From NCBI GenBank assembly GCA_036436775.1, contig GCA_036436775.1_3676.1: a DNA stretch of 64,000 bases; one strand, 5' to 3'. Under the pieces are notes generated by a model. That model made no database searches, was not told the DNA's origin, and worked only from the letters and a program-made list of their open reading frames with translations. A program made the translations under genes and the position numbers. The stretch's first letter is position 1, and every line of letters begins with the position of its first letter. The DNA comes from a phage. This document shows, one piece after another, positions 3,727 to 46,606 of the stretch.

Positions 3727-5846
3727 AAGTTGTAAAACGGGACGGTAGAGAAGAGGTCTATAACGGAATTAAGGTGATCAAGGCGGCAGAGTCCGCCTTA
3801 CTTGAGTCTGGGCATACTGAAGAAGAAGCTTACCGGATCGCCTGCGCGGTTAATGAAGTTGTTGCTAACAATCTACCAACCGACCAGTGCACGATCTCTG
3901 TAAAAAATATCCATATCCTTGTTGAAGACGCTCTTATGGATATGGGTTTAAAATGTGCAGCCAGAGAATACATCCAGTATAGGCAGACAAGAGATAATAA
4001 CAGAGAGGCAGGTGGAAAACTGCTTGCAGATATTAGTGGCTTCCTGGATCGCACTTGTGATGAATTTACAAAAGAAAACGCAAATAAGCCTACCAATCAT
4101 GTACACACTCATCGTGACCTGCTTGCAGGCATCCTTAGCAAACACCTTGCATCGACACAGATCCTGCCAGACCGTGTCTCCGAAGAGCACAATAAAGGCT
4201 TCATCCATGTGCATGACCTTGACTATTTGATCAGTCCGTTAACAAACTGTTGTTTAGTAAATTATCCAGATATGTTGGAAAACGGATTCAACATTGGTAA
4301 CGCCCATGTCAGTAAGCCGAAGTCAATAGGGGTTGCAACAACAATCCTTAGCCAAATCTCTAGTGCGGTAGCTAGTGCTCAATATGGTGGTCAGACTATG
4401 AGCCATATTGATCATTATCTGGCACAGTATGCTGAAGCAACCTATGAGAAGAACCTTAAATTTTGCCAGGAACATTGGTTGCCAGATGCTGAGACTGTTG
4501 CAATGCAAATGACAGATAAAGACGTGTTTGACAGCATGCAGACGTTGCTTTATCAAATCAATACGTTAACTTCTGTCAACGGGCAAACTCCATTCATCAC
4601 ATTAAGTTTAGGACTGGATACCTCGGTCTTTGGTAGAATGATTACCAAAAACTACTTGAAAGTCCACAAAATGGGTCTTGGTGAAGAACGTATTACACCT
4701 GTGTTCCCTAAAGTGCTGTTCTTCCTAGAAGAGGGTGTCAACATGAACCCTGGAGATCCTAACTATGATTTGAAACGATTAGCTCTGGAATGCTCTGCAG
4801 AGCGGATTTATCCTGACTTTGTTTCTGTTCCACTAAATCGTAAAGTGACAGGCTCGACAGATGGTAAAGTAACGAGCATGGGTTGCCGGAGTTTTCTTAG
4901 CAAATACAATGACTTGGAAACAGGTGAGGAGAAATACCTTGGCAGATTTAACTTAGGCGTTGTTAGCCTTAACCTGCCAATGATTGCGGCAAAAGCTAAG
5001 ACGGAAGGTGTTGATTTCTTTGCCGTTCTTGACGAGTATCTGGATTTGGCATATGAAGCTCACCTTGTAAGAGTTAACCGTCTAAAAGGAACAAAGGCAG
5101 GGCAGAACCCTATCATGTGGTGTGAAGGCGCTCTTGCTCGCCTGGATCCTGAAGAGAGTATTGATAAACTCTTCTATGACGGGTACGCTTCCATCAGTAT
5201 TGGGTATATTGGTGTGTATGAAACCTGTCAGATTTTGGGCAGAGAGGGTGACAAGGCTTTGGCTCTTGGAATACTTCAGCACATGAGAGATGCTTGTGAG
5301 CGATACAAGAAGGAAAGTAGACTAGCGTTTAGCTTGTACGGCACCCCTTCTGAGAGTCTATGCTATAAAGCTGCAACCTGTCTGGATCGTGAATATCCTG
5401 AAGTGTTGAAGCATGAGCATGAATATCTCACCAACAGTTTCCATCAGCCAGTATGGATAAATAGCTCTCCTTTTGATAAGTGGGAATATGAGGAAGGTTT
5501 TGCTATAATCTCCTCTGGTGGCAACATCGGATACGTAGAGACACCAAATCTGAAAAACAACTTAGATGCTTTAGAGGCTCTTGTTGACTTCGGGTATAAA
5601 CACATTATGTATTTTGGTATTAACCAGCCTGTGGATAAATGTCTTAAGTGCGGATTCTCTGGCGAGTTTAGCGCAACAGCTAAAGGATTTGTATGCCCAG
5701 AGTGTGGAAACCATGAAGAGGGAACGATCAGTGTAATCAGACGTGTATCCGGGTACCTGTCTAGTCCAAACTCTCGTCCTTACAATAAAGGTAAGCAAGC
5801 GGAAGTTATAGAACGGGTTAAGCACTACGGAAGTTGTGGTTGCTGA
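3723..5846 (+). CDS. nrdD: Anaerobic ribonucleoside-triphosphate reductase NrdD (class III)
   Basis: 707-aa ORF; N-terminal ATP cone, Zn-ribbon CxxC...CxxC, C-terminal glycyl-radical motif RRVSGYL; GTG start with GGAGAG RBS. Confidence 0.9.
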   Translation: MKVVKRDGREEVYNGIKVIKAAESALLESGHTEEEAYRIACAVNEVVANNLPTDQCTISVKNIHILVEDALMDMGLKCAAREYIQYRQTRDNNREAGGKLLADISGFLDRTCDEFTKENANKPTNHVHTHRDLLAGILSKHLASTQILPDRVSEEHNKGFIHVHDLDYLISPLTNCCLVNYPDMLENGFNIGNAHVSKPKSIGVATTILSQISSAVASAQYGGQTMSHIDHYLAQYAEATYEKNLKFCQEHWLPDAETVAMQMTDKDVFDSMQTLLYQINTLTSVNGQTPFITLSLGLDTSVFGRMITKNYLKVHKMGLGEERITPVFPKVLFFLEEGVNMNPGDPNYDLKRLALECSAERIYPDFVSVPLNRKVTGSTDGKVTSMGCRSFLSKYNDLETGEEKYLGRFNLGVVSLNLPMIAAKAKTEGVDFFAVLDEYLDLAYEAHLVRVNRLKGTKAGQNPIMWCEGALARLDPEESIDKLFYDGYASISIGYIGVYETCQILGREGDKALALGILQHMRDACERYKKESRLAFSLYGTPSESLCYKAATCLDREYPEVLKHEHEYLTNSFHQPVWINSSPFDKWEYEEGFAIISSGGNIGYVETPNLKNNLDALEALVDFGYKHIMYFGINQPVDKCLKCGFSGEFSATAKGFVCPECGNHEEGTISVIRRVSGYLSSPNSRPYNKGKQAEVIERVKHYGSCGC

Positions 5847-21025: not shown

Positions 21026-21477
21026 CCACACATAGTCTGAAGAATATGGAGTGCACAATGAGAACATTGTCAGAGGTTTTTGTGGTGATCCTGATGATCA
21101 TTACGTCCATAGCGGCTGTTGCAGGAATACTCACGGGTGGAACATGATAAACACACATGCATCTGAAGAGACATCCAAAGGAGTGACTATATGTCCCTTG
21201 ACTGAGCCAGTGAAAGAGGAAAACTTCGATTCTGAAGACTCTCCATCTTCGCTCCAGGTAGATCCTGAGGCTGATGACCTGACGTGGGAGGACATTGTAG
21301 ATATCTGGTTCTCTATTATGCCTGAGCACGAAGAGTTCAGGGGTGGTAGACTATGAAGCACCGAGCCCACACAGGTTCCTCATGCTAAAGCATGGCCTGA
21401 AGAGGCAAACGTGCATAATTCCTGTGCATTGGGACATATAAAACCCTGTTCACACTCTCATTTACAGAGGAGATTTC

Positions 21478-21693
21478 ATGAAGATAGAAATATTTGGTGG
21501 AGCTGACAACACTCGTGGCCTGATTTACCTTGAATTCGATGAATCATACCTGCCAGAGGTGTTAAATATGGACTCTGTTGCTGATGCTTTGGGAGTAAGT
21601 CCTAAAGATCTCTACTCTGGTGCCGAGATTGATGGTTGGGAGGAGACCATGAACATTGATTTCAATGAAGTAGAGGATGAACCGCTGGACTGA
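21478..21693 (+). CDS. Small acidic protein
   Basis: 71-aa ORF with AGAGGAG RBS. Confidence 0.6.
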   Translation: MKIEIFGGADNTRGLIYLEFDESYLPEVLNMDSVADALGVSPKDLYSGAEIDGWEETMNIDFNEVEDEPLD

Positions 21694-21869
21694 CACACAA
21701 TTAGCTGCCCGGCTAAAGTGCTGGAAGCACCTATAACACATCTTTCAACTAAATTTCCCACCACCACAATCACTTACCTCCCACACATGACTGTTTGCTT
21801 GTTTAGTGAGCAGTCATGCCTTGACATTCTTGCCTATCCTGATAAAATTAAGTTCTTCTCTTTTCTTTT

Positions 21870-21895
21870 ACCGAGTAATTCGGGTTTTCTGTTCT
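21870..21895 (+). terminator. Candidate terminator ending the + strand block
   Basis: CCGAG-TAA-TTCGG hairpin followed by GTTTTCTGTTCTCTT. Confidence 0.4.
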
Positions 21896-23189
21896 CTTCG
21901 GTTTGAAGGGGTATGGAGATACACCTGAGTGAACAGGGTGAACAACCGAACCATTGGCTATGGCATTAGCATGGCGAAGCGGACGGGTGACGAAAGAGGG
22001 GCCGGAGGACACCAGTCACTGCCATATGATATATGGGTGATAACCTGAAGAGTCTGAATAAGTGTTTAAGTACCAGTCAGAGGAAAAGGTGAATGGTAGC
22101 CGAAGGGGGAGGGGGGGTTACCTGCTTCTGTAAACATGCATCTGAAATACTACTTTAGATAACCTGAACCTGCCTTTCTGACAAATATTCCCTATTAAAC
22201 TTGAATTATTTATAGAAAATACCACAACACCACTTAAGTCTTTGATTTTACACACAAATCCTACAGATATTCACCTTCCATATTTAACATACTTGTAACA
22301 TATCTATACCTAACCTGTCCGATCAACTCCCCCACCCACATCCTCCATATTTTCCCTGTCTGTACCACCCCTGCCCCGCCGGGAGTCCCGTCATATCTGG
22401 CTTTCCAGCAAATATCACACCCACAAATATCATTGCCTGAAGAGGGTTTCATCCCATAATACATGCCTTACCTGAAGAGCGCTTCATATACCCAGTAAAT
22501 TTTTTAATTGACCCCCCTCCCAGCCGCCGGAGGGGTTGGCTTTTCCCACACAGACCTGAAGAGTCAGCCAGAAATATCTGAAGAGGTCCAGTTATGCCAC
22601 GATTTTGTGCTTGTCCTACAGGAGTGCTTCCCTGTCAGGAGCCGGTAGCGACTGGAGTGCTGCCAGGCGGACGAAATGGGAATCATTCTCATTCTTATAA
22701 CAATTCTCAAATATCGAGGCAGTGAGGCAAATTAATAGGTGAGGCCGTTCACACAGTGGCACAACATTTGCAACCTATCTTTTATGGGTGAATGAGAATA
22801 CCTATCATTGTGAGAATAGTTATCATTACGGGCAATTTAACATAATACCCATTATGCGCACCACTGGCGATACATACAGGGATTGATAACATGAGTTACT
22901 GTTTACACACATAACAATTATATTTCTTACTATTTGTGTGGGATATAGTTAGCAGCCGATAGATTAGATATTGACCTGCAGGCTTCCAACCGTCCAGACG
23001 TCTAAACGCCCACACAACAAGGATTATACATACAACACTGAATGTAAACAGGGCCGCAAAAATGCTACCATACAAGCTTGTAAATTTTTCATGCAGCACT
23101 TGACAAAGAGGAGAAAAACTTGTCTGACACAATATGACTTAATTGCCACAACATGACACTTTTGCACACCTGATTGTTTGCATGTCTAA

Positions 23190-23554
23190 TAGTTTACATA
23201 GATAACTGTTCACATACTTATCATTTACATGATTGACTGTTTACACAAAGATGATAAGCCATGCCATTCGTTTGCATGACAATAATTAACTGGTTTGCAA
23301 TTAACAAGTTAATAATCTTTCACTGGCTATGCCAGGTGACCTTTGGTCACACCTTCGGGTGTTTCTATGACATAATATAAAAGCAGGGCAACTATTAGCA
23401 GATATATAGTTGCCTTGCTTGTTATGTCATGATTAACTAAATACAAGGCAACTATGATCTGGTTAATAGTTTGCAGACAAACTATCACGGGGGTGATGGT
23501 TACTGCTTTTATATTATGTCGCGACTCCGTCGCGCCATGCCATTCGTTTGCATA
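23190..23554. repeat. Iteron/palindrome cluster (candidate origin or regulatory region)
   Basis: TGTTTACA-type iterons 23193-23250; 20-bp direct repeat GCCATGCCATTCGTTTGCAT at 23258 and 23535; 18-bp perfect inverted repeat at 23369-23386 / 23504-23521; GGCAACTAT palindromes between. Confidence 0.6.
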
Positions 23555-24172
23555 GTTGCCTTATTGTTACATATAAAATAATTGTATTGTTAATTATTTC
23601 TTATCTTTCTCTTAGTCATCTAATGATTCCAGTCAGTATAGTAATGTACAGTAAACATTAGACGACTAAAGATTTATATGCTTATAATAACTTACAGTGA
23701 CAATTTCGGACTGTTTACGAAAAATGTTGACACCTGAGCTGATTTATGTTATGCAGTTTACACGAATAATTATTTTATGCAGGTATTGACTATTCCGTTA
23801 TTCTATGGTCGGAATAAATACTTAGCAGACTATAGAATGGTGACGCTACGTGAATTCTGGAATTTAGTGGCTATAGTTATACCCGATTTTTCACGTAGAA
23901 CACGCTTTTGTGGTTATGTAAGTGTATGACTTATAAAGATTTTTAGTTGTTGACAAGACACTGAAGATATGCATCAGGTTAAATTTTGTGCAATAGCGGC
24001 ATTACGTGCAATTTTGGAAGGAAAAACGTGTAAAAATGGCCCTGCTACCACACAATGAAAGATTATGCAATAGCTATTTTACATGTATATTTGTACAGTG
24101 TGTGGGATTGATGGCTAGTCAATTATTCCACTTGCAGGCTGGGCCGTTTGTGGTAGGAGAAATACAGACAAA

Positions 24173-24207
24173 AAGAAAGGGGCCTTTTAAAGCCCCTGAT
24201 AGTTTAG
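24173..24207 (-). terminator. Rho-independent terminator ending the - strand small-gene island
   Basis: On - strand AGGGGC-TTTAAAA-GGCCCCT followed by TTCTTTTTGTCTG. Confidence 0.65.
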
Positions 24208-24215
24208 TTAAGAAA

Positions 24216-24635
24216 TTATAATGATTCGTATATTTGATAGATTCGATTTGCCAGGTCATTACGATAGCGGAATTTTTCATCACGCTTGATCATCAGATCT
24301 TTGAAGCCATATTCTTTAAGCACTTCATTAACTTTATAGCGGCATACCTTCATATTATCTTGCGCGTCACCGATAAATTTGTTGCTATGATGCATGGCTT
24401 TGATCTCTTCCTCCAGAGCCAGGGCAACTACGCGGACCGGATCAAGCTGATATGCGGTAACATCAATGCGGCATTGTAAACGGCTTTTAACGTCTGCCAC
24501 CGGATATACTGCAACCTCTTCCCCGTCAACATTCACAATAACCAGTTTACCATCAATTTCAAAACCTTTTGCGGCTGGGCCGTGACAAAAAGCGTTATCA
24601 AAGCTGTATGCGGGATTGTTAGATTTAATATTCAT
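24216..24635 (-). CDS. Hypothetical protein
   Basis: 139-aa ORF; upstream promoter and AGAGG RBS. Confidence 0.65.
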   Translation of the reverse strand: MNIKSNNPAYSFDNAFCHGPAAKGFEIDGKLVIVNVDGEEVAVYPVADVKSRLQCRIDVTAYQLDPVRVVALALEEEIKAMHHSNKFIGDAQDNMKVCRYKVNEVLKEYGFKDLMIKRDEKFRYRNDLANRIYQIYESL

Positions 24636-34329: not shown

Positions 34330-34412
34330 GATTTTTTATCCTCTTTACTAGTTAGTGTGGTGTTGTTCACCTTGTAGGATAAGAATAGCAGGACTCCCCC
34401 GGTTGTCAACAA

Positions 34413-34591
34413 TTATTTTAAATTATTTTTATGATAGAATCCACCTGCCGCCGCCCCTACCAGGTTAACCATCATTTTTTCGTACTCTTCTTTATGTTCC
34501 AACGCTCCCGCCATAGCCTTTTCAACCAGGGCGATAGCCTCAGCGTCATTAATAGCTACATTTTCCAGGGGGGATCATATTACCTTTCATT
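34413..34591 (-). pseudogene. Small gene interrupted by frameshift at a C6/G6 homopolymer
   Basis: Strong RBS GAAGAGGAGG + ATG; frame breaks after 13 codons at CCCCCC; a 1-nt change would give a continuous ~59-aa ORF. Confidence 0.35.
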
Positions 34592-34748
34592 TTTGTACCT
34601 CCTCTTCAATTGTTACCTATCCTACAGTATAGGCCCACCAGGTTTACAAGCCTTCATTCTCTCCTACCTGGTCAGTTAGGTCCTGCCAGGCTGGCCCACC
34701 AGGTTGCAGCGGTTAGTGCATCAGGTTAGAAAAATTTTTTGAAAAGTG

Positions 34749-35010
34749 TTGACAGCGGCCCCGCCAGGTGGCACAATATACCTATCGAAAGGACGGAAGG
34801 CACCGGTGACGGGGGAGACAACCACCGGGGATGGGCGCTGCATAAAATGAGAACGGTTATCATTATCATTTAAAAGTTTATGCAAAAAATCCTTGCTCTC
34901 TTTGTCCTGTGTGATACTATAATAACAAGCCGGGGCAACAGGGGCCGGGAGACAACCACCGGGCCTGCCCGTTATTCTGCAAACGAGAATGATTATCATT
35001 CAAAATTCTA
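34749..35010 (+). ncRNA. Two tandem promoter-associated structured units (candidate small RNAs)
   Basis: Each unit has GC stem-loop with identical 17-nt core GGGAGACAACCACCGGG (34813-34829, 34946-34962) and downstream GAGAAYGRTTATCATT palindrome; first preceded by TTGACA and AT-rich UP-like stretch. Confidence 0.35.
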
Positions 35011-35079
35011 AATGAGAACTCCTCGCATTTAATAAATTTAATTAGCATGCTAATTACCCTCCGTAACAATTTCCTATAA

Positions 35080-35560
35080 AACAATACACCATAAAATTTC
35101 CATATAGAAATTTTAAAAATCCATTTCTGAAAACGAAAAATCGATTTCGTCCCAAAAAATTTCAGGCCGAGAGCCGGAACGATTCCCAGAAAATCCGATT
35201 CAGAAAACGAAAAACAGATCGAGTACTGAGAAATTTATCGAGAAAAGTTTTCAGAAAATCAGAGCCCTGAAATGAAAAGTAGATCGAGTACCTGGAAATC
35301 CGCACCGTGACTTCAAGATAGTGGTTAGATTGTTACCATAGAAGGTCAAGGGTAAGTGGAGGAAGTTCTAGTAGAGGGATGTTAGCATGTGCGAGAAATC
35401 TGTAATGGTGGCCTGGAATATGGTGCAAACGATAGGATGGGTGATTCAGCTTGTCGCGCCCACTCTGAAAAAAATCCATTTTAGTTTTCGATCTATTTTC
35501 TGATTTTCTAAGAATTTTAAAATATCTGGCCCGGTGAAATATCAAAAGGAGGAAATCCAT
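35080..35560. repeat. AT-rich tandem/inverted repeat region
   Basis: About 40-45-bp units around CAGAAAAYGAAAAA...GATCGAGTAC repeated 3x at 35100-35300; AAATCCATTTT at 35100, 35467, 35549. Confidence 0.6.
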
Positions 35561-35605
35561 TTTAGAAATCCCCCTTACACTTGATATGCCAGGAATTTTC
35601 AAGTA

Positions 35606-43906: not shown

Positions 43907-44182
43907 CAATAGTTCAGGTAGGTCGTTAAGCTACCCCGCACCATTACGTGCATAGCCATACGTTTTCACGTAGGATCGGACCATCTCATATTCCTATGAT
44001 AAGCAACCACAGGAATCCTCCCATTTCGACCGCACTTGCTGGTCTACTTCCTTTCGGAATGGCCTCTGAGCGTTCGCTCTTTTGAGCGCTTCGTTGCGGA
44101 TTACCTTGCCATAAGGTTTAGGCTTCCCGCAGTTAAAGAGGTTATTCGACATAGATTACTCTATGAAGCCACAATGTTATTT
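43907..44182 (-). ncRNA. Candidate 276-nt group I intron splitting the DNA polymerase at motif C
   Basis: Upstream exon ends in U (codon CAT=His); intervening sequence ends in G before GAT GAG; joining gives YHDEYQLQV; internal GACCA/UGGUC pairing; contains stop codons. Confidence 0.5.
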
Positions 44183-46606
44183 ATGGTAATAAATAATACG
44201 GCGAACACCTTCATCGTACCACCCACGCTTCACCATTTGGTGGTGCATGAGTATCCCAACTAAGTCACACAGCGATGCACCACCATTCTGTTGGTATGCA
44301 TTAAGTAAAGAGTGTTTAGATCGGGTCCAGATAGCATGACCATCAAAAGAGTAGATAAACTTCTTACCAGTTGCTTCCCAGAATTTCTCCAGATCCTCTT
44401 TGCGCCCCTTAAGACCGGGGTTGGCATCCCAAAGCGCATCGATTACCCTTTGTCCCAACTCTGGAGAGATGTCCAGCATATCTGCAACTTTATCTTTTTG
44501 TGCCCCGTACATAACCCCATACGTGATAGGTTTACCGTCGTTACGGGACACCTCTCTACCTGCTACTTTCGTATATGCCTCAGCATTGTTTTGGTGTGCA
44601 TCTCCGTTACTTACAACATCGTAATACAGGCCGTTGTCGAACTCAAAGGCACCCCAAGCCCCGATAAGCTGCTCTAAGTTGGACCCGTCAATACCGATCT
44701 CAAAGTATCCTGGAGGAACACCCCACAAGCTACGCATCTCTTTACCCATAACCACTTTAGGAGATGGTTTAGGCATGTTTGCACAAATACTGTGTTTCTG
44801 TCTGGAAGTGTTTGTCAGCCCAGAACTTTTAGCAGGAAGCTTATGGTCAATCTTCAAACGTGGGTGATTAAGAAGACCAGTATCAACCTTATCCTCCTTG
44901 ATTGGATCAAGGACCGATCTGCGGTTTCGCAATGATAACCACAAGACGATATCTTTAGCCATCTCTCCGTTCAATTTTTCAAGATTCGGACACAGGTGTC
45001 CAAACGTATCTTTCAGTTGCGGAGAAGTAATAAGTGCTCTGGCTTTTCTACGTATTTTCCCGAATACTTCCTTTTTAATCCTTTCAGAGTTAGGAAAGCT
45101 TCGGAACTTGTGCACAGTTGTCTGGAACTTGGCATCAGTTTTGTTCCAGAAGTTGATAATCAGGTCACAATACTCTGACTCTAAAAGCTCGTCCATATAT
45201 GCATATACTCGTGCATCAACATCCGCATCAGGTAGAGCTTTCTTCTTGCTATCTTTAGTTACATCTTTAGTTCTCCACATTGTCGGTAGCCAGCCAGCAC
45301 TGATCAGATACCGCTTAATGTCGTCCTGATTGCTGATTTTCATAGGTATCTTGCAGTCCGGCATTCGCTTCTGCTGTAGATCACTTATTGCCTGATCCAT
45401 CAGCTCTTTAGGCAAAGGGTGGGGTGTGGAAGTGCCCTTAATATAGCCTCTCAAGAAATCAGCCATCTTATCGGGGTCTTTGCAGCCCATCTCTTCACAC
45501 CATTTTATCCCTATCTTGCTGACATCCCCTGTAGAGGTAAATGCTCGCTTAGGCGGGGCTTTGAACTCTAAAGCGCTCATGTCTACAGGATAGCCAAGCT
45601 TATCTTTTAACCATTTCCAACCATTATTAGAGATTGTCCCGTCTTGGTTAAACGGCTTTTCAGGGAACTTGGGCCGCTGAGACATTGACAGCTCTTTTAA
45701 AGGCAGCTGTGGTTCAACACGATCAGCGATTTCTTTCATCCACGCATCGCAACGGTCACGTAAAGCAATAGCTCCATCTATGTCGAAGTATACACCCTGA
45801 CGGGCCTGCAGCTCCATCAGGAAGTGCTGCAGCATGCCTCGACGTAGTGCGTTCTTCCAGGTGATCTTCTTGAACCCTTTCGGCTTCTCTTTGGCTGGAT
45901 CGTACATAAAGTTCTGCATGTCAGATTTGCCGTAGAATACACCTTTTGATTCCGCTACCAGCTCTTTCCAGAGCAGCTCCTGGATGATAACGTCCTCGAA
46001 TACACGATCCACATACTTCCACAACGGAAGATCGCGCCAGTCATCAATTTGAACTTTCTGGTTACCAAGGGCGTAGCCCCATGCCATAAGGCCGTGAGGA
46101 CCAACGGGCTGCATTTTCTTAGTAACCGGGTTGAATACAGAATCCGGACAACCTTTTGGTAAAGGGCGATCAGGCCACAAGATTCGGCTCATCGCCAACG
46201 TATCAAACAGATTAACCTGGTGGTCGTTGATAGTCCCCATACACTTAGGGTCACGGAACATATCAAAATGAATACCGGATAATCTTTCCATCAGCATAAA
46301 GTCATAACTGTAGCAGTTATGGCAGTTCAAAGCTGTTGGTGACCAGTCAGAATTTCCTGTAAGCCAACCTTCCAACTCCGAAAAATCTGCTATGCGAACT
46401 TCAAAATCTTTATAAAGAGTTTTCTTTGCCAGAATAAAGTTCTTAGCCTTCTCTATATCCTCTTCAGAGTAGTGTGTGCGGTCATTTAGAGGAAGGAACA
46501 GCATAAAACGGTTCTTATTCAGCTCTTTAAACAAGCCGCAGTGATAATAAAGATCTAGGTCTTCTAGTAAACCAGAGGCCTCAAGGTCGAAAGACCACAT
46601 ACTCAT
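44183..46606 (-). CDS. Family-A DNA polymerase, N-terminal segment (3'-5' exo domain, palm/fingers, motif B)
   Basis: FDLEASGL exo motif; Pol-A motif B KPITYGVMYGAQ; ORF runs into stop 8 codons past the point where motif C is expected; AAGGAGAACTGTAT RBS. Confidence 0.85.

Follow-up and report, generated by a model that had tools for sequence, protein, structure and literature searches.

A probable genome-end region with a 459-bp direct terminal repeat and conserved non-coding elements in an rV5-like Vequintavirus

In phages with ends of the T7/T3 type (also N4-like and phiKMV-like phages), an exact short repeat is found at both ends of a DNA with fixed termini, and one copy of it is present at each junction of the concatemer. 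In T7, short-repeat arrays (SRL and SRR) reportedly adjoin the terminal repetition. The concatemer model for phages with a direct terminal repeat (DTR) is summarised in PMC6775973. Among the Vequintavirinae, terminal redundancies of 458 bp were reported for EdH4 and HdK5 (PMC6563267), and a 459-bp repeat for Gotham, with the "same specific start sequence ... all virions" (PMC7471380). Another member of the subfamily, KPP-1, was described with a 514-bp DTR, twofold coverage and a PhageTerm call of T7-type packaging (PMC9862379). The rV5 genome was described in 2013 as circularly permuted (PMC3606486), which conflicts with the later-reported fixed 459-bp repeat, and the BpE1AUH report (2026) likewise described the genus as circularly permuted or headful. 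The basis of these claims is assembly circularity or PhageTerm output that is ambiguous.

The window analysed here, 64,000 nt of contig GCA_036436775.1_3676.1, belongs to an rV5-like Vequintavirus infecting E. coli, and is matched by 122 Vequintavirus records at 86-96% identity. A gene-free stretch of 2.5 kb in this window had been presented, in a preliminary description made from the sequence, as a candidate origin, packaging or regulatory hub. We find that it is very probably a concatemer junction, that is a genome-end region, and not a generic hub. In the rV5 genome paper, the stretch appears as a grey "non-coding" box left without explanation (PMC3606486), and the genome-end reading would provide one.

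The terminal repeat and the physical ends

The stretch is bounded by the last right-arm gene (nt 21478-21693, + strand, 71 aa, annotated as rV5 gp158) and by the left-arm gene nearest the genome end (nt 24216-24635, - strand, 139 aa, homologue of rV5 gp159), which reads toward the end. The latter is followed by an intrinsic terminator, a GC-rich hairpin and then a T-run (nt 24178-24197, - strand), also annotated in Murica, Alma and EdH4. The 71-aa gene was used as a coding control: it is intact in 16 of 17 relatives, with 39/39/149 substitutions by codon position. Under the same test, none of the ORFs of at least 40 aa in nt 21700-24210 was both intact and third-position biased, which agrees with the earlier view that no convincing ORF is present. 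A minus-strand small protein at nt 21848-22012 was rejected, its conserved bases falling in different frames in the two clades of relatives (A and B); its open frames are a composition effect.

Physical ends were located from the records of relatives. The first and last 459 bp of the EdH4 record are identical (0 mismatches) and map base for base to nt 22666-23124 of the window. Four GenBank records, among them YN3, bov11CS3 and bov25_3, open at nt 22666 (query position 967), the reverse-oriented records Pr121LW and Aya open at nt 23124 (query position 1425), and a tandem duplication in the CM1 record begins at nt 1 of the DTR. Most of the 122 matching records open at arbitrary positions, and a few (CM1, I29) carry assembly artefacts at the repeat. 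The left physical end reads ...CTGCCA/GGCGGACG and the right one ...AAAAACTTGTC/TGACAC, the slash marking the cut. In the records of the homologues, the same sequence stands at both ends and the termini are fixed.

The alignment of the DTR across relatives is gap-free, both of its outer flanks are rich in indels, and conservation breaks exactly at 23124/23125. For the present phage, the boundaries are transferred by homology, at ~89-92% identity to EdH4. The window sequence is circularly collapsed or permuted, with the 459-bp repeat present once, and the order is a right-arm non-coding tail (nt 21694-22665), the DTR (nt 22666-23124) and a left-arm non-coding head (nt 23125-24215). With the physical ends and the 459-bp repeat inside the region, the packaging role put forward earlier is upheld.

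We infer the following cycle. Replication would produce concatemers joined head to tail, a single copy of the repeat lying at each junction, and terminase, whose gene is located beyond the window, would cut them sequence-specifically at 22665/22666 and at 23124/23125. Duplication of the repeat would then let every virion DNA open and close with the same 459 bp, a fixed-end packaging of the T7 type. That the gene blocks converge here would follow from the outward transcription of the two arms, each of which is read toward its own end. Exact end coordinates permit correct linearisation, engineering and assessment of transduction risk in a therapeutically popular genus.

A promoter and a candidate non-coding RNA before the left cut

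The right-arm tail contains a near-consensus sigma-70 promoter (nt 21821-21848, + strand; TTGACA, 16 nt, TAAAAT, with the TG of an extended -10; 11/12 match). It is conserved in clade A, and clade B has TTGCAA-17-TATAAT with the TG at the same position. Reading toward the right end, this promoter would drive an untranslated element of ~270 nt (nt 21855-22123, + strand), which is 97.7-100% identical in 119 phage records, versus 86-93% for the whole region. The element consists of a 5' pyrimidine tract, hairpins and a 3' G-run, with two conserved islands, CUGAGUGAACAGsGUGAACAwCCGAA and GUUUAAGUACCAG. It has no conserved reading frame and was not found in E. coli genomes. An Rfam 15 scan of the window gave a group I intron at nt 43957-44192 as its sole match, a permissive scan of nt 21400-24500 returned sub-threshold chance matches only, and neither known RNA families nor tRNA or tmRNA were found for the region. 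A full-text literature search yielded no paper linking Vequintavirus with sRNA. With a promoter of its own and a non-coding sequence, the element is a candidate ncRNA, not a proven one.

Such a block might instead be a cis-acting DNA site (nt 21849-22120), for example one of pac type recognised by the small terminase subunit or by some other protein that binds the ends, and not an RNA gene. Extreme invariance is what one expects of a protein-DNA recognition site co-evolving with a conserved protein, and the block is close to the genome end. The thermodynamic z-scores of the element are modest (-1.8 and -1.5), and its eight compensatory pairs are not above the shuffles (mean 6.4), in a set where only two clades exist. 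Compensatory pairs suggested by a MAFFT alignment for the 5' hairpin were discarded, the alignment being mis-registered there. However, 270 nt is long for a binding site, and a near-consensus extended -10 promoter stands upstream in both clades, though its sequence differs between them. In clade B, moreover, an HNH endonuclease gene adds 0.7 kb between the element and the cut. Hairpins are also maintained through changed sequence (CCGA/UCGG versus CCAGAA/UUCUGG, and UAUGGCA/UGCCAUA versus UAUCGCA/UGCGAUG), the consensus fold reaches z=-2.7 against column shuffles, and it is better on the + strand (-29.3 kcal/mol) than on the - strand (-19.8 kcal/mol). We hold a DNA site to be unlikely, and keep the element as a candidate RNA.

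Two extensions of the RNA proposal were rejected. A single large structured RNA running from the promoter at nt 21821 to a terminator at nt 22535 is not supported by the folding of nt 21855-22550 (z=+1.6). Paralogy of the element with the second non-coding region of the window was dismissed as well, the local-alignment score being at the 95th percentile of controls and BLAST giving nothing.

Copies of a short box, CTGAAGAG, are spread over nt 22045-22585 (+ strand), where exact matches start at nt 22045, 22437, 22472, 22556 and 22578; the first is inside the ncRNA candidate and the other four are 88-229 nt left of the left cut. The preliminary description had counted six copies within 1.2 kb: five are exact and in the region, and a sixth is reached only by including nt 21397, outside the stretch. 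The box is in excess in the 64 kb (14 copies versus 2.15 expected). Four of the five copies are conserved in clade A, that at nt 22578 not being conserved in most relatives; clade B also has boxes before the cut, and half of its copies of the ~270-nt element are without the internal one. Similar non-coding copies, often after a CACAC tract, occur outside the region at nt 21163, 21397 and 29060. These copies, and the clade-B elements that have no box, weaken the idea that the box is a terminus-specific terminase site. A hammerhead ribozyme, suggested by a CUGANGA core in the box, was excluded, since helix III cannot form by inspection; the Rfam hammerhead models gave no match even at E<=10. The Eco57I/AcuI site CTGAAG was judged coincidental.

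Farther along, a C-rich tract carries an intrinsic-terminator-like hairpin (nt 22514-22535, + strand) followed by a T-run up to nt 22545, where such a structure had indeed been noticed earlier. The hairpin is partly conserved and its 5' flank is indel-prone. The oriented boxes and the terminator lie ahead of the left cut, which is adjoined by a variable spacer (nt 22590-22665; identity 0.33-0.56, gaps 0.27-0.5). In the window, this spacer has an extra local duplication of ~33 bp (ACAGGAGTGCTTCC / ACTGGAGTGCTGCC).

The repeat array and the Y-shaped palindrome beyond the right cut

A hypervariable array of short repeats (nt 23125-23257, + strand) starts directly at the right cut, which is the inner boundary of the repeat at the left end. 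It is made of GACAC-type units and then, at nt 23175-23245, of ACTGTTYACA "iterons". The clustered TGTTTACA iterons noted before are real: five such units start at nt 23175, 23191, 23207, 23223 (two mismatches, read by eye) and 23238, ~16 nt apart. TRF did not call them in the window, and on rV5 it reported arrays of period 15-16. The array evolves fast and its copy number varies between phages, rV5, Murica, slur16 and L004 having ~75 nt more.

Next to the array is a module of 276 bp bounded by an exact 20-nt direct repeat, DR1 (GCCATGCCATTCGTTTGCAT, nt 23258-23277, + strand) and DR2 (nt 23534-23553, + strand). The repeat and its first position were given correctly before, and the second copy starts at nt 23534, not 23535. 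The same shift applies to the perfect 18-bp inverted repeat inside the module, of which the left copy (nt 23369-23386) stands and the partner is at nt 23503-23520, not 23504-23521. Palindromes of the sequence GGCAACTAT had been seen within this inverted repeat, and all four copies in the window are in or next to it (0.48 expected).

The 152 nt from 23369 to 23520 are predicted to fold, on either strand, into a Y-shaped palindrome with a three-way junction. The inverted repeat is the closing stem, arm 1 consists of the nested GGCAACTAT palindromes, and arm 2 forms a hairpin of 9 bp whose loop is G-rich. The minimum free energy is -70.5 kcal/mol, versus -33.0 +/- 3.8 kcal/mol for shuffled sequences (z=-9.8 on the + strand, -9.9 on the - strand). 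As a guide to the strand on which the structure would act, G·U pairs (3 versus 2) and folding with DNA parameters (-40.2 versus -38.7 kcal/mol) separate the strands little. In clade A the palindrome is nearly invariant, with insertions only at the tip of arm 1 (rV5, L046). Covariation within this clade is uninformative, for the palindrome as for the ~270-nt element, because both hardly vary there. Clade B has the same architecture, with seven of the 18 stem positions changed and compensated.

All relatives that have the module keep both copies of the 20-bp repeat, and clade B has an identical pair of its own. Phage FV3 has a single copy and the module is cleanly absent, a polymorphism compatible with deletion between the repeats. 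The module is dispensable in that phage. It might be taken for a small non-autonomous, MITE-like element (nt 23278-23553) with a 20-bp target duplication and no phage function: an exact direct repeat flanks it, the phage with one repeat copy misses precisely the module, and a perfect inverted repeat is inside. We consider this very doubtful. The inverted repeat is not at the module ends (91 nt from DR1, 13 nt from DR2), where that of a MITE is expected, and the element, expected in multiple copies, is single in each genome, with nothing similar elsewhere in the window. No transposase is present and the module barely varies within clade A. It occupies the same position in two diverged clades, and the compensated stem together with the clade-specific identical repeat pairs indicates selection on the structure.

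Could the palindrome be an elaborate bidirectional terminator or insulator, one that blocks read-through from the left-arm genes to the terminal repeat and the other way? On both strands, the GC-closed structure stands between an A-tract and a T-tract (GACATAATATAAAAGCAG ... CTGCTTTTATATTATGTC), a minus-strand terminator is annotated at about this position in Murica and Alma, and the rV5 paper anticipated terminators acting both ways between genes 163 and 164 (PMC3606486). Nevertheless, the last left-arm gene already has a canonical terminator behind it (nt 24197-24178), a structure of 152 nt with a three-way junction goes far beyond what termination needs, and the 3' arm is less U-rich in clade B. 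We regard a terminator as unlikely.

The origin proposed in the preliminary description would be sought particularly in nt 23125-23560, with iterons binding an initiator, AT-rich DNA unwinding, and the palindrome extruding or priming. Iteron-like spacing and a very stable palindrome are found there, GC content is 35% in nt 23001-24000, cumulative GC skew has its maximum in the region, and clade-B relatives have two to three perfect DnaA boxes in the terminal region. However, no DnaA box (TTATCCACA-like, up to one mismatch) occurs in nt 21700-24210, and the window-wide number (23 versus 19.65 expected) is that of chance. The iterons, which in an origin should be conserved, have the lowest conservation of the whole region and vary in sequence and number. 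FV3 is viable without the palindrome module, no initiator gene is adjacent, and the skew maximum coincides with the switch of transcription direction, to which the rV5 paper likewise ties the turn (PMC3606486). The origin claim therefore fails to find support, and we hold such a function to be improbable.

The ~270-nt block and the Y-shaped palindrome are both strongly conserved, non-coding and previously unannotated. We propose, tentatively and at somewhat less than even chances, that the genome-end region encodes them as two undescribed functional elements, an RNA (nt 21855-22123) and a 152-nt palindrome, and that Fur-like boxes, described below, make expression from the terminal repeat depend on the iron status of the host. 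If so, an RNA made by the host RNA polymerase and essentially invariant in more than 100 phages would act in trans; it might, for example, help to take over the host, serve as a decoy against defence systems, or be a cofactor of packaging or replication. The palindrome with its maintained 20-bp repeat would work as a single-stranded nucleic acid, for instance in priming, as a promoter, or in the form of a structured RNA. The unusually strong constraint on both makes them cheap experimental leads, with FV3 as a natural deletion for comparison.

Comparison with known regulatory sites and genome ends

The E. coli Fur box (GATAATGATAATCATTATC) is the closest described relative of a motif found inside the DTR. 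There are two tandem 18-nt GAGAAT-N3-TATCATT boxes (nt 22793-22827, + strand) and a degenerate third one at nt ~22678-22708. The form GAGAAY-N3-TATCATT occurs exactly four times in the 64 kb (nt 22794, 22812, 34849 and 34985, all on the + strand; 0.29 expected, a significant excess), and only in the two non-coding regions of the window. That these two regions share a recognition element, as suggested earlier, is thus confirmed; longer homology between them was not found by BLAST or local alignment. Since the second region lies away from the genome ends, the shared motif probably has to do with transcription and not with packaging.

The motif agrees with the Fur consensus at 12 of its 13 specified positions. 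Over the window, this consensus is matched best at nt 34849 (16/19), 34985 (15/19) and 22812 (14/19), and matches with up to four mismatches number four versus 0.38 expected. Two differences from a Fur box are that the DTR copies are weak (14/19) and that the boxes do not cover the -35/-10, being placed downstream of promoters or at a distance from them. As candidate operators inside the terminal repeat, they may be bound by host Fur or, equally possibly, by a phage-encoded protein. A link between the iron status sensed by host Fur and the terminal repeat of a lytic phage would be a testable lead. Together, the conserved sigma-70 promoter, the Fur-box-like sites and the terminators make a regulatory role of the region plausible.

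For the two conserved elements, the likenesses are those of analogy. The phi29 pRNA is a three-way junction, and the parvovirus ITR is a T-shaped terminal hairpin. The Y-shaped palindrome may be compared to both as a fold of ~150 nt with a three-way junction near the left end. In contrast to the ITR, it is internal, 700 bp from the end, and dispensable in FV3, and a pRNA-like role is unlikely because rV5-like phages are, we presume, users of a conventional terminase. The ~270-nt element recalls the small stable phage RNAs of unknown function, as it is conserved and untranslated, has a promoter ahead of it and is close to a genome end. Neither element resembles an Rfam family in sequence or by covariance model.

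The ends themselves may be compared with those of T7. Non-coding DNA flanks the repeat, a promoter reads toward the right end, and the GACAC/ACTGTTYAC array adjoining the right cut resembles the SRL/SRR arrays. Unlike T7, where a phage RNA polymerase reads the genome in a single direction, this is a myovirus of 136-140 kb with both arms transcribed outward from host-type promoters; its repeat is three times longer than that of T7 and has no sequence similarity to the T7 pac elements. Compared with the termini of EdH4, HdK5, Gotham and KPP-1, nt 22666-23124 of the window are the homologue of the EdH4 DTR, with conserved end nucleotides. The Vequintavirinae terminus papers give the length alone, and to these the present analysis adds the surrounding architecture, the ultra-conserved element, the Y-shaped palindrome, the hypervariable array and the Fur-like boxes.

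Probable position of the genome ends

The 2.5-kb sequence of the gene-poor region (window 21700-24210) matched 122 phage records by BLAST, at 86-96% identity, and all of them were rV5-like Vequintaviruses. Four of these records began at query position 967 (window 22666) and two reverse-oriented ones at 1425 (window 23124), which is the pattern expected of a repeat of about 460 bp at the genome ends. In the EdH4 record, the first 459 bp equal the last 459 bp with 0 mismatches and map to window 22666-23124, and the reverse-oriented Pr121LW record opens exactly at 23124. Terminal redundancies of 458 bp have been described for EdH4 and HdK5 (Korf et al., PMC6563267), as have 459-bp terminal repeats in Gotham, with an identical start sequence in all virions (Dias et al., PMC7471380). 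KPP-1, from another genus of the same subfamily, has a 514-bp direct terminal repeat (DTR) with twofold coverage and a T7-type PhageTerm call (PMC9862379). The identical EdH4 ends, the record starts and the published repeats together make it very probable that the region is the concatemer junction of a DTR genome; of the roles first proposed for it, packaging is the one upheld, since genome ends and DTR are located here.

The junction would comprise the right-arm tail (21694-22665), the DTR (22666-23124) and the left-arm head (23125-24215), with a left cut between CTGCCA and GGCGGACG and a right cut between AACTTGTC and TGACAC. Assignment to the DTR class is made via homologues, in which identical ends and fixed termini were found. 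What had been taken for convergent gene blocks would be the two genome arms, transcription in each running outward to the end of that arm. The terminal repeat itself is already published for the genus; the surrounding architecture and two constrained elements are not.

In rV5 (NC_011041) the counterpart of the region, 104020-106612, lies unannotated between gp158 (+) and gp159 (-). The rV5 genome paper draws it as a grey "non-coding" box, in which bidirectional terminators were expected and none found, describes the genome as circularly permuted, and reports a skew change at 104425-105475 accompanying the switch of transcription direction (PMC3606486). Around the region, the + arm encodes ribonucleotide reductases and the - arm replication genes (PolA with a group I intron, a DnaB-like helicase and PIF1). 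The intron (RF00028, window 43957-44192, -, 64.7 bits) adjoins a PolA-like ORF (44177-46606, -), so the intron apparently splits the DNA polymerase gene.

At the terminal repeat, two relatives (L-numbers denote their sequences) show what are apparently errors of assembly. In CM1 (L068, MK962749; 1126-2171) 523 bp are perfectly duplicated in tandem, starting exactly at DTR nucleotide 1; in I29 (L069, ON286975; 728-1867) 546 bp are duplicated and an inverted piece is also present. Nineteen GenBank records (MG0656xx; BLAST matches H1-H6 and others) are titled "Campylobacter phage", with C. jejuni as host. Over this region they share 90-96% identity with E. coli Vequintaviruses, and mislabelling or contamination probably accounts for them.

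Coding potential and recurrent motifs

The initial view that the region holds no convincing ORF was borne out when intactness and codon-position substitutions were compared among relatives: every gap ORF lacked the coding signature of a flanking control gene, which is intact in 16 of 17 relatives and has 39, 39 and 149 substitutions at the three codon positions. One ambiguous gap ORF was rejected as a gene, its conserved nucleotides falling in different frames in clade A (the window's own relatives) and clade B (divergent relatives recovered by pattern search of IMG/VR and metagenomes).

The repeats of the preliminary description are all present and above chance, with two coordinates 1 base off. 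Its six CTGAAGAG copies are five in the range claimed, all on the + strand and four of them conserved; the sixth lies outside. The last four precede the left cut by 88-229 nt, and clade B too has such boxes ahead of its cut. Beyond the terminal region, CTGAAGAG follows a CACAC-rich tract in non-coding or 5'-UTR sequence at 21163, 21397, 29060 (-) and 46467 (-). The tract precedes five of the eight copies judged non-coding (background 7%) and is absent from in-gene copies. This suggests a genome-wide oriented motif, and CTGAAGAG is regarded as acting at the transcription or RNA level, not as a proven terminase site.

The GAGAAY-N3-TATCATT boxes match the Fur consensus at 12 of 13 specified positions. 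Fur binding is plausible; the best consensus matches of the window are at 34849 (16/19), 34985 (15/19) and 22812 (14/19). The first two belong to the second non-coding region (34400-35600), which also has sigma-70-like promoter(s) and odd GAAAACGAAAAA / GATCGAGTAC repeats at ~35130-35300, and whose BLAST matches include Enterobacter, Acinetobacter and Serratia phage records.

Two constrained elements

Across 119 records, window 21849-22120 keeps 97.7-100% identity, against differences of 10-25% in the genes beside it. This ultra-conserved element, which was not found in 5,426 E. coli genomes, begins directly after a predicted promoter (TTGACA-16-TGaTAAAAT). Clade B, with no cultured member, yielded nine copies with ~77% identity over the 5' 100 nt. 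Their promoter differs in sequence and keeps the extended -10 (TTGCAA-17-TGcTATAAT); the islands CUGAGUGAACAGsGUGAACAwCCGAA and GUUUAAGUACCAG, the 5' pyrimidine tract and the 3' G-run are retained, and helices persist with altered sequence (CCGA/UCGG to CCAGAA/UUCUGG; UAUGGCA/UGCCAUA to UAUCGCA/UGCGAUG). The consensus fold has z=-2.7 against column-shuffled alignments (2 of 300 shuffles as good), and reaches -29.3 kcal/mol on the + strand versus -19.8 on the - strand. Compensatory pairs, from two clades only, number 8 against a shuffle mean of 6.4, not above shuffles, and z-scores for single sequences reach a modest -1.8 and -1.5. No Rfam family matches the element, and our literature search returned no paper linking Vequintavirus with sRNA. 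We give an even chance to its being an ncRNA gene, the main rival being a cis-acting DNA site. In L005 (clade B) an HNH homing-endonuclease gene (PF13392; 7776-8486, +) lies between element and DTR, so the spacing between element and cut need not be constant.

On the other side of the DTR, the 18-bp inverted repeat already described closes a predicted 152-nt three-way junction (23369-23520), in which one arm consists of the GGCAACTAT palindromes and the other is a 9-bp hairpin whose loop is rich in G. Its minimum free energy is -70.5 kcal/mol, versus -33.0 +/- 3.8 for shuffles (z=-9.8 on the + strand, -9.9 on the - strand); it may act on either strand, as RNA or as DNA. This Y-element is almost invariant within clade A. 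Clade B keeps the architecture with a different sequence: seven of 18 closing-stem positions differ, all seven compensated, and arm 1 has no sequence relation to that of clade A. Insertions in rV5 and L046 are confined to the arm-1 tip. The surrounding 20-bp direct repeats form a near-identical pair in every genome having the module, clade B with its own pair. FV3 (L020, NC_019517) has a single copy (about 1985-2004) and lacks the intervening 276 bp, so the module is dispensable; its loss probably came about through recombination of the two direct repeats, and FV3 is a natural deletion mutant usable in experiments on the module.

A mini-hairpin, CTGGCTATGCCAG or GGCTATGCC, occurs at differing terminal-region places in different phages (window 23322-23334 and 21952-21965, the L046 arm-1 tip, and an rV5 (L001) insertion at ~4775-4805), as if it had moved or been duplicated among sites.

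Origin, short-repeat array and comparison with T7

An origin, also proposed initially, is disfavoured. The region has no DnaA box with up to one mismatch, and across the window such boxes are as frequent as chance predicts; the GC-skew maximum is confounded with gene orientation, and viable FV3 lacks the palindrome module. Perfect DnaA boxes (TTATCCACA), two or three per genome, do occur in the terminal region of clade-B relatives L005 (6853-6892), L035 (11959-11998), L046 (1012-1051) and L058, and none in the window's clade; origin function may thus exist in the clade-B lineage.

The window was aligned with 19 relatives, 17 of which were used for identity figures. The DTR is gap-free (identity 0.81-0.95), and indels abound in the 75 bp preceding the left cut. 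Directly left of that cut, a ~33-bp local duplication, ACAGGAGTGCTTCC / ACTGGAGTGCTGCC (22618-22664), is common to the window, L004 and S127 (L011); the other aligned relatives have a single copy, except inoa and Alma, which carry an unrelated insertion there. Exactly between 23124 and 23125, conservation collapses into an array of GACAC-type and ACTGTTYAC-type units, varying in number among phages (~75 nt longer in rV5, Murica, slur16 and L004). The supposed iterons (23193-23250) are therefore the fastest-evolving part of the region, which argues against a conserved initiator-binding origin. The terminal repetition of T7 is flanked by short-repeat arrays, and the variable array beside the right cut recalls these. 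In DTR phages, each concatemer junction contains a single repeat and is cut site-specifically (PMC6775973), and the workings of the region would fit this T7-type paradigm.
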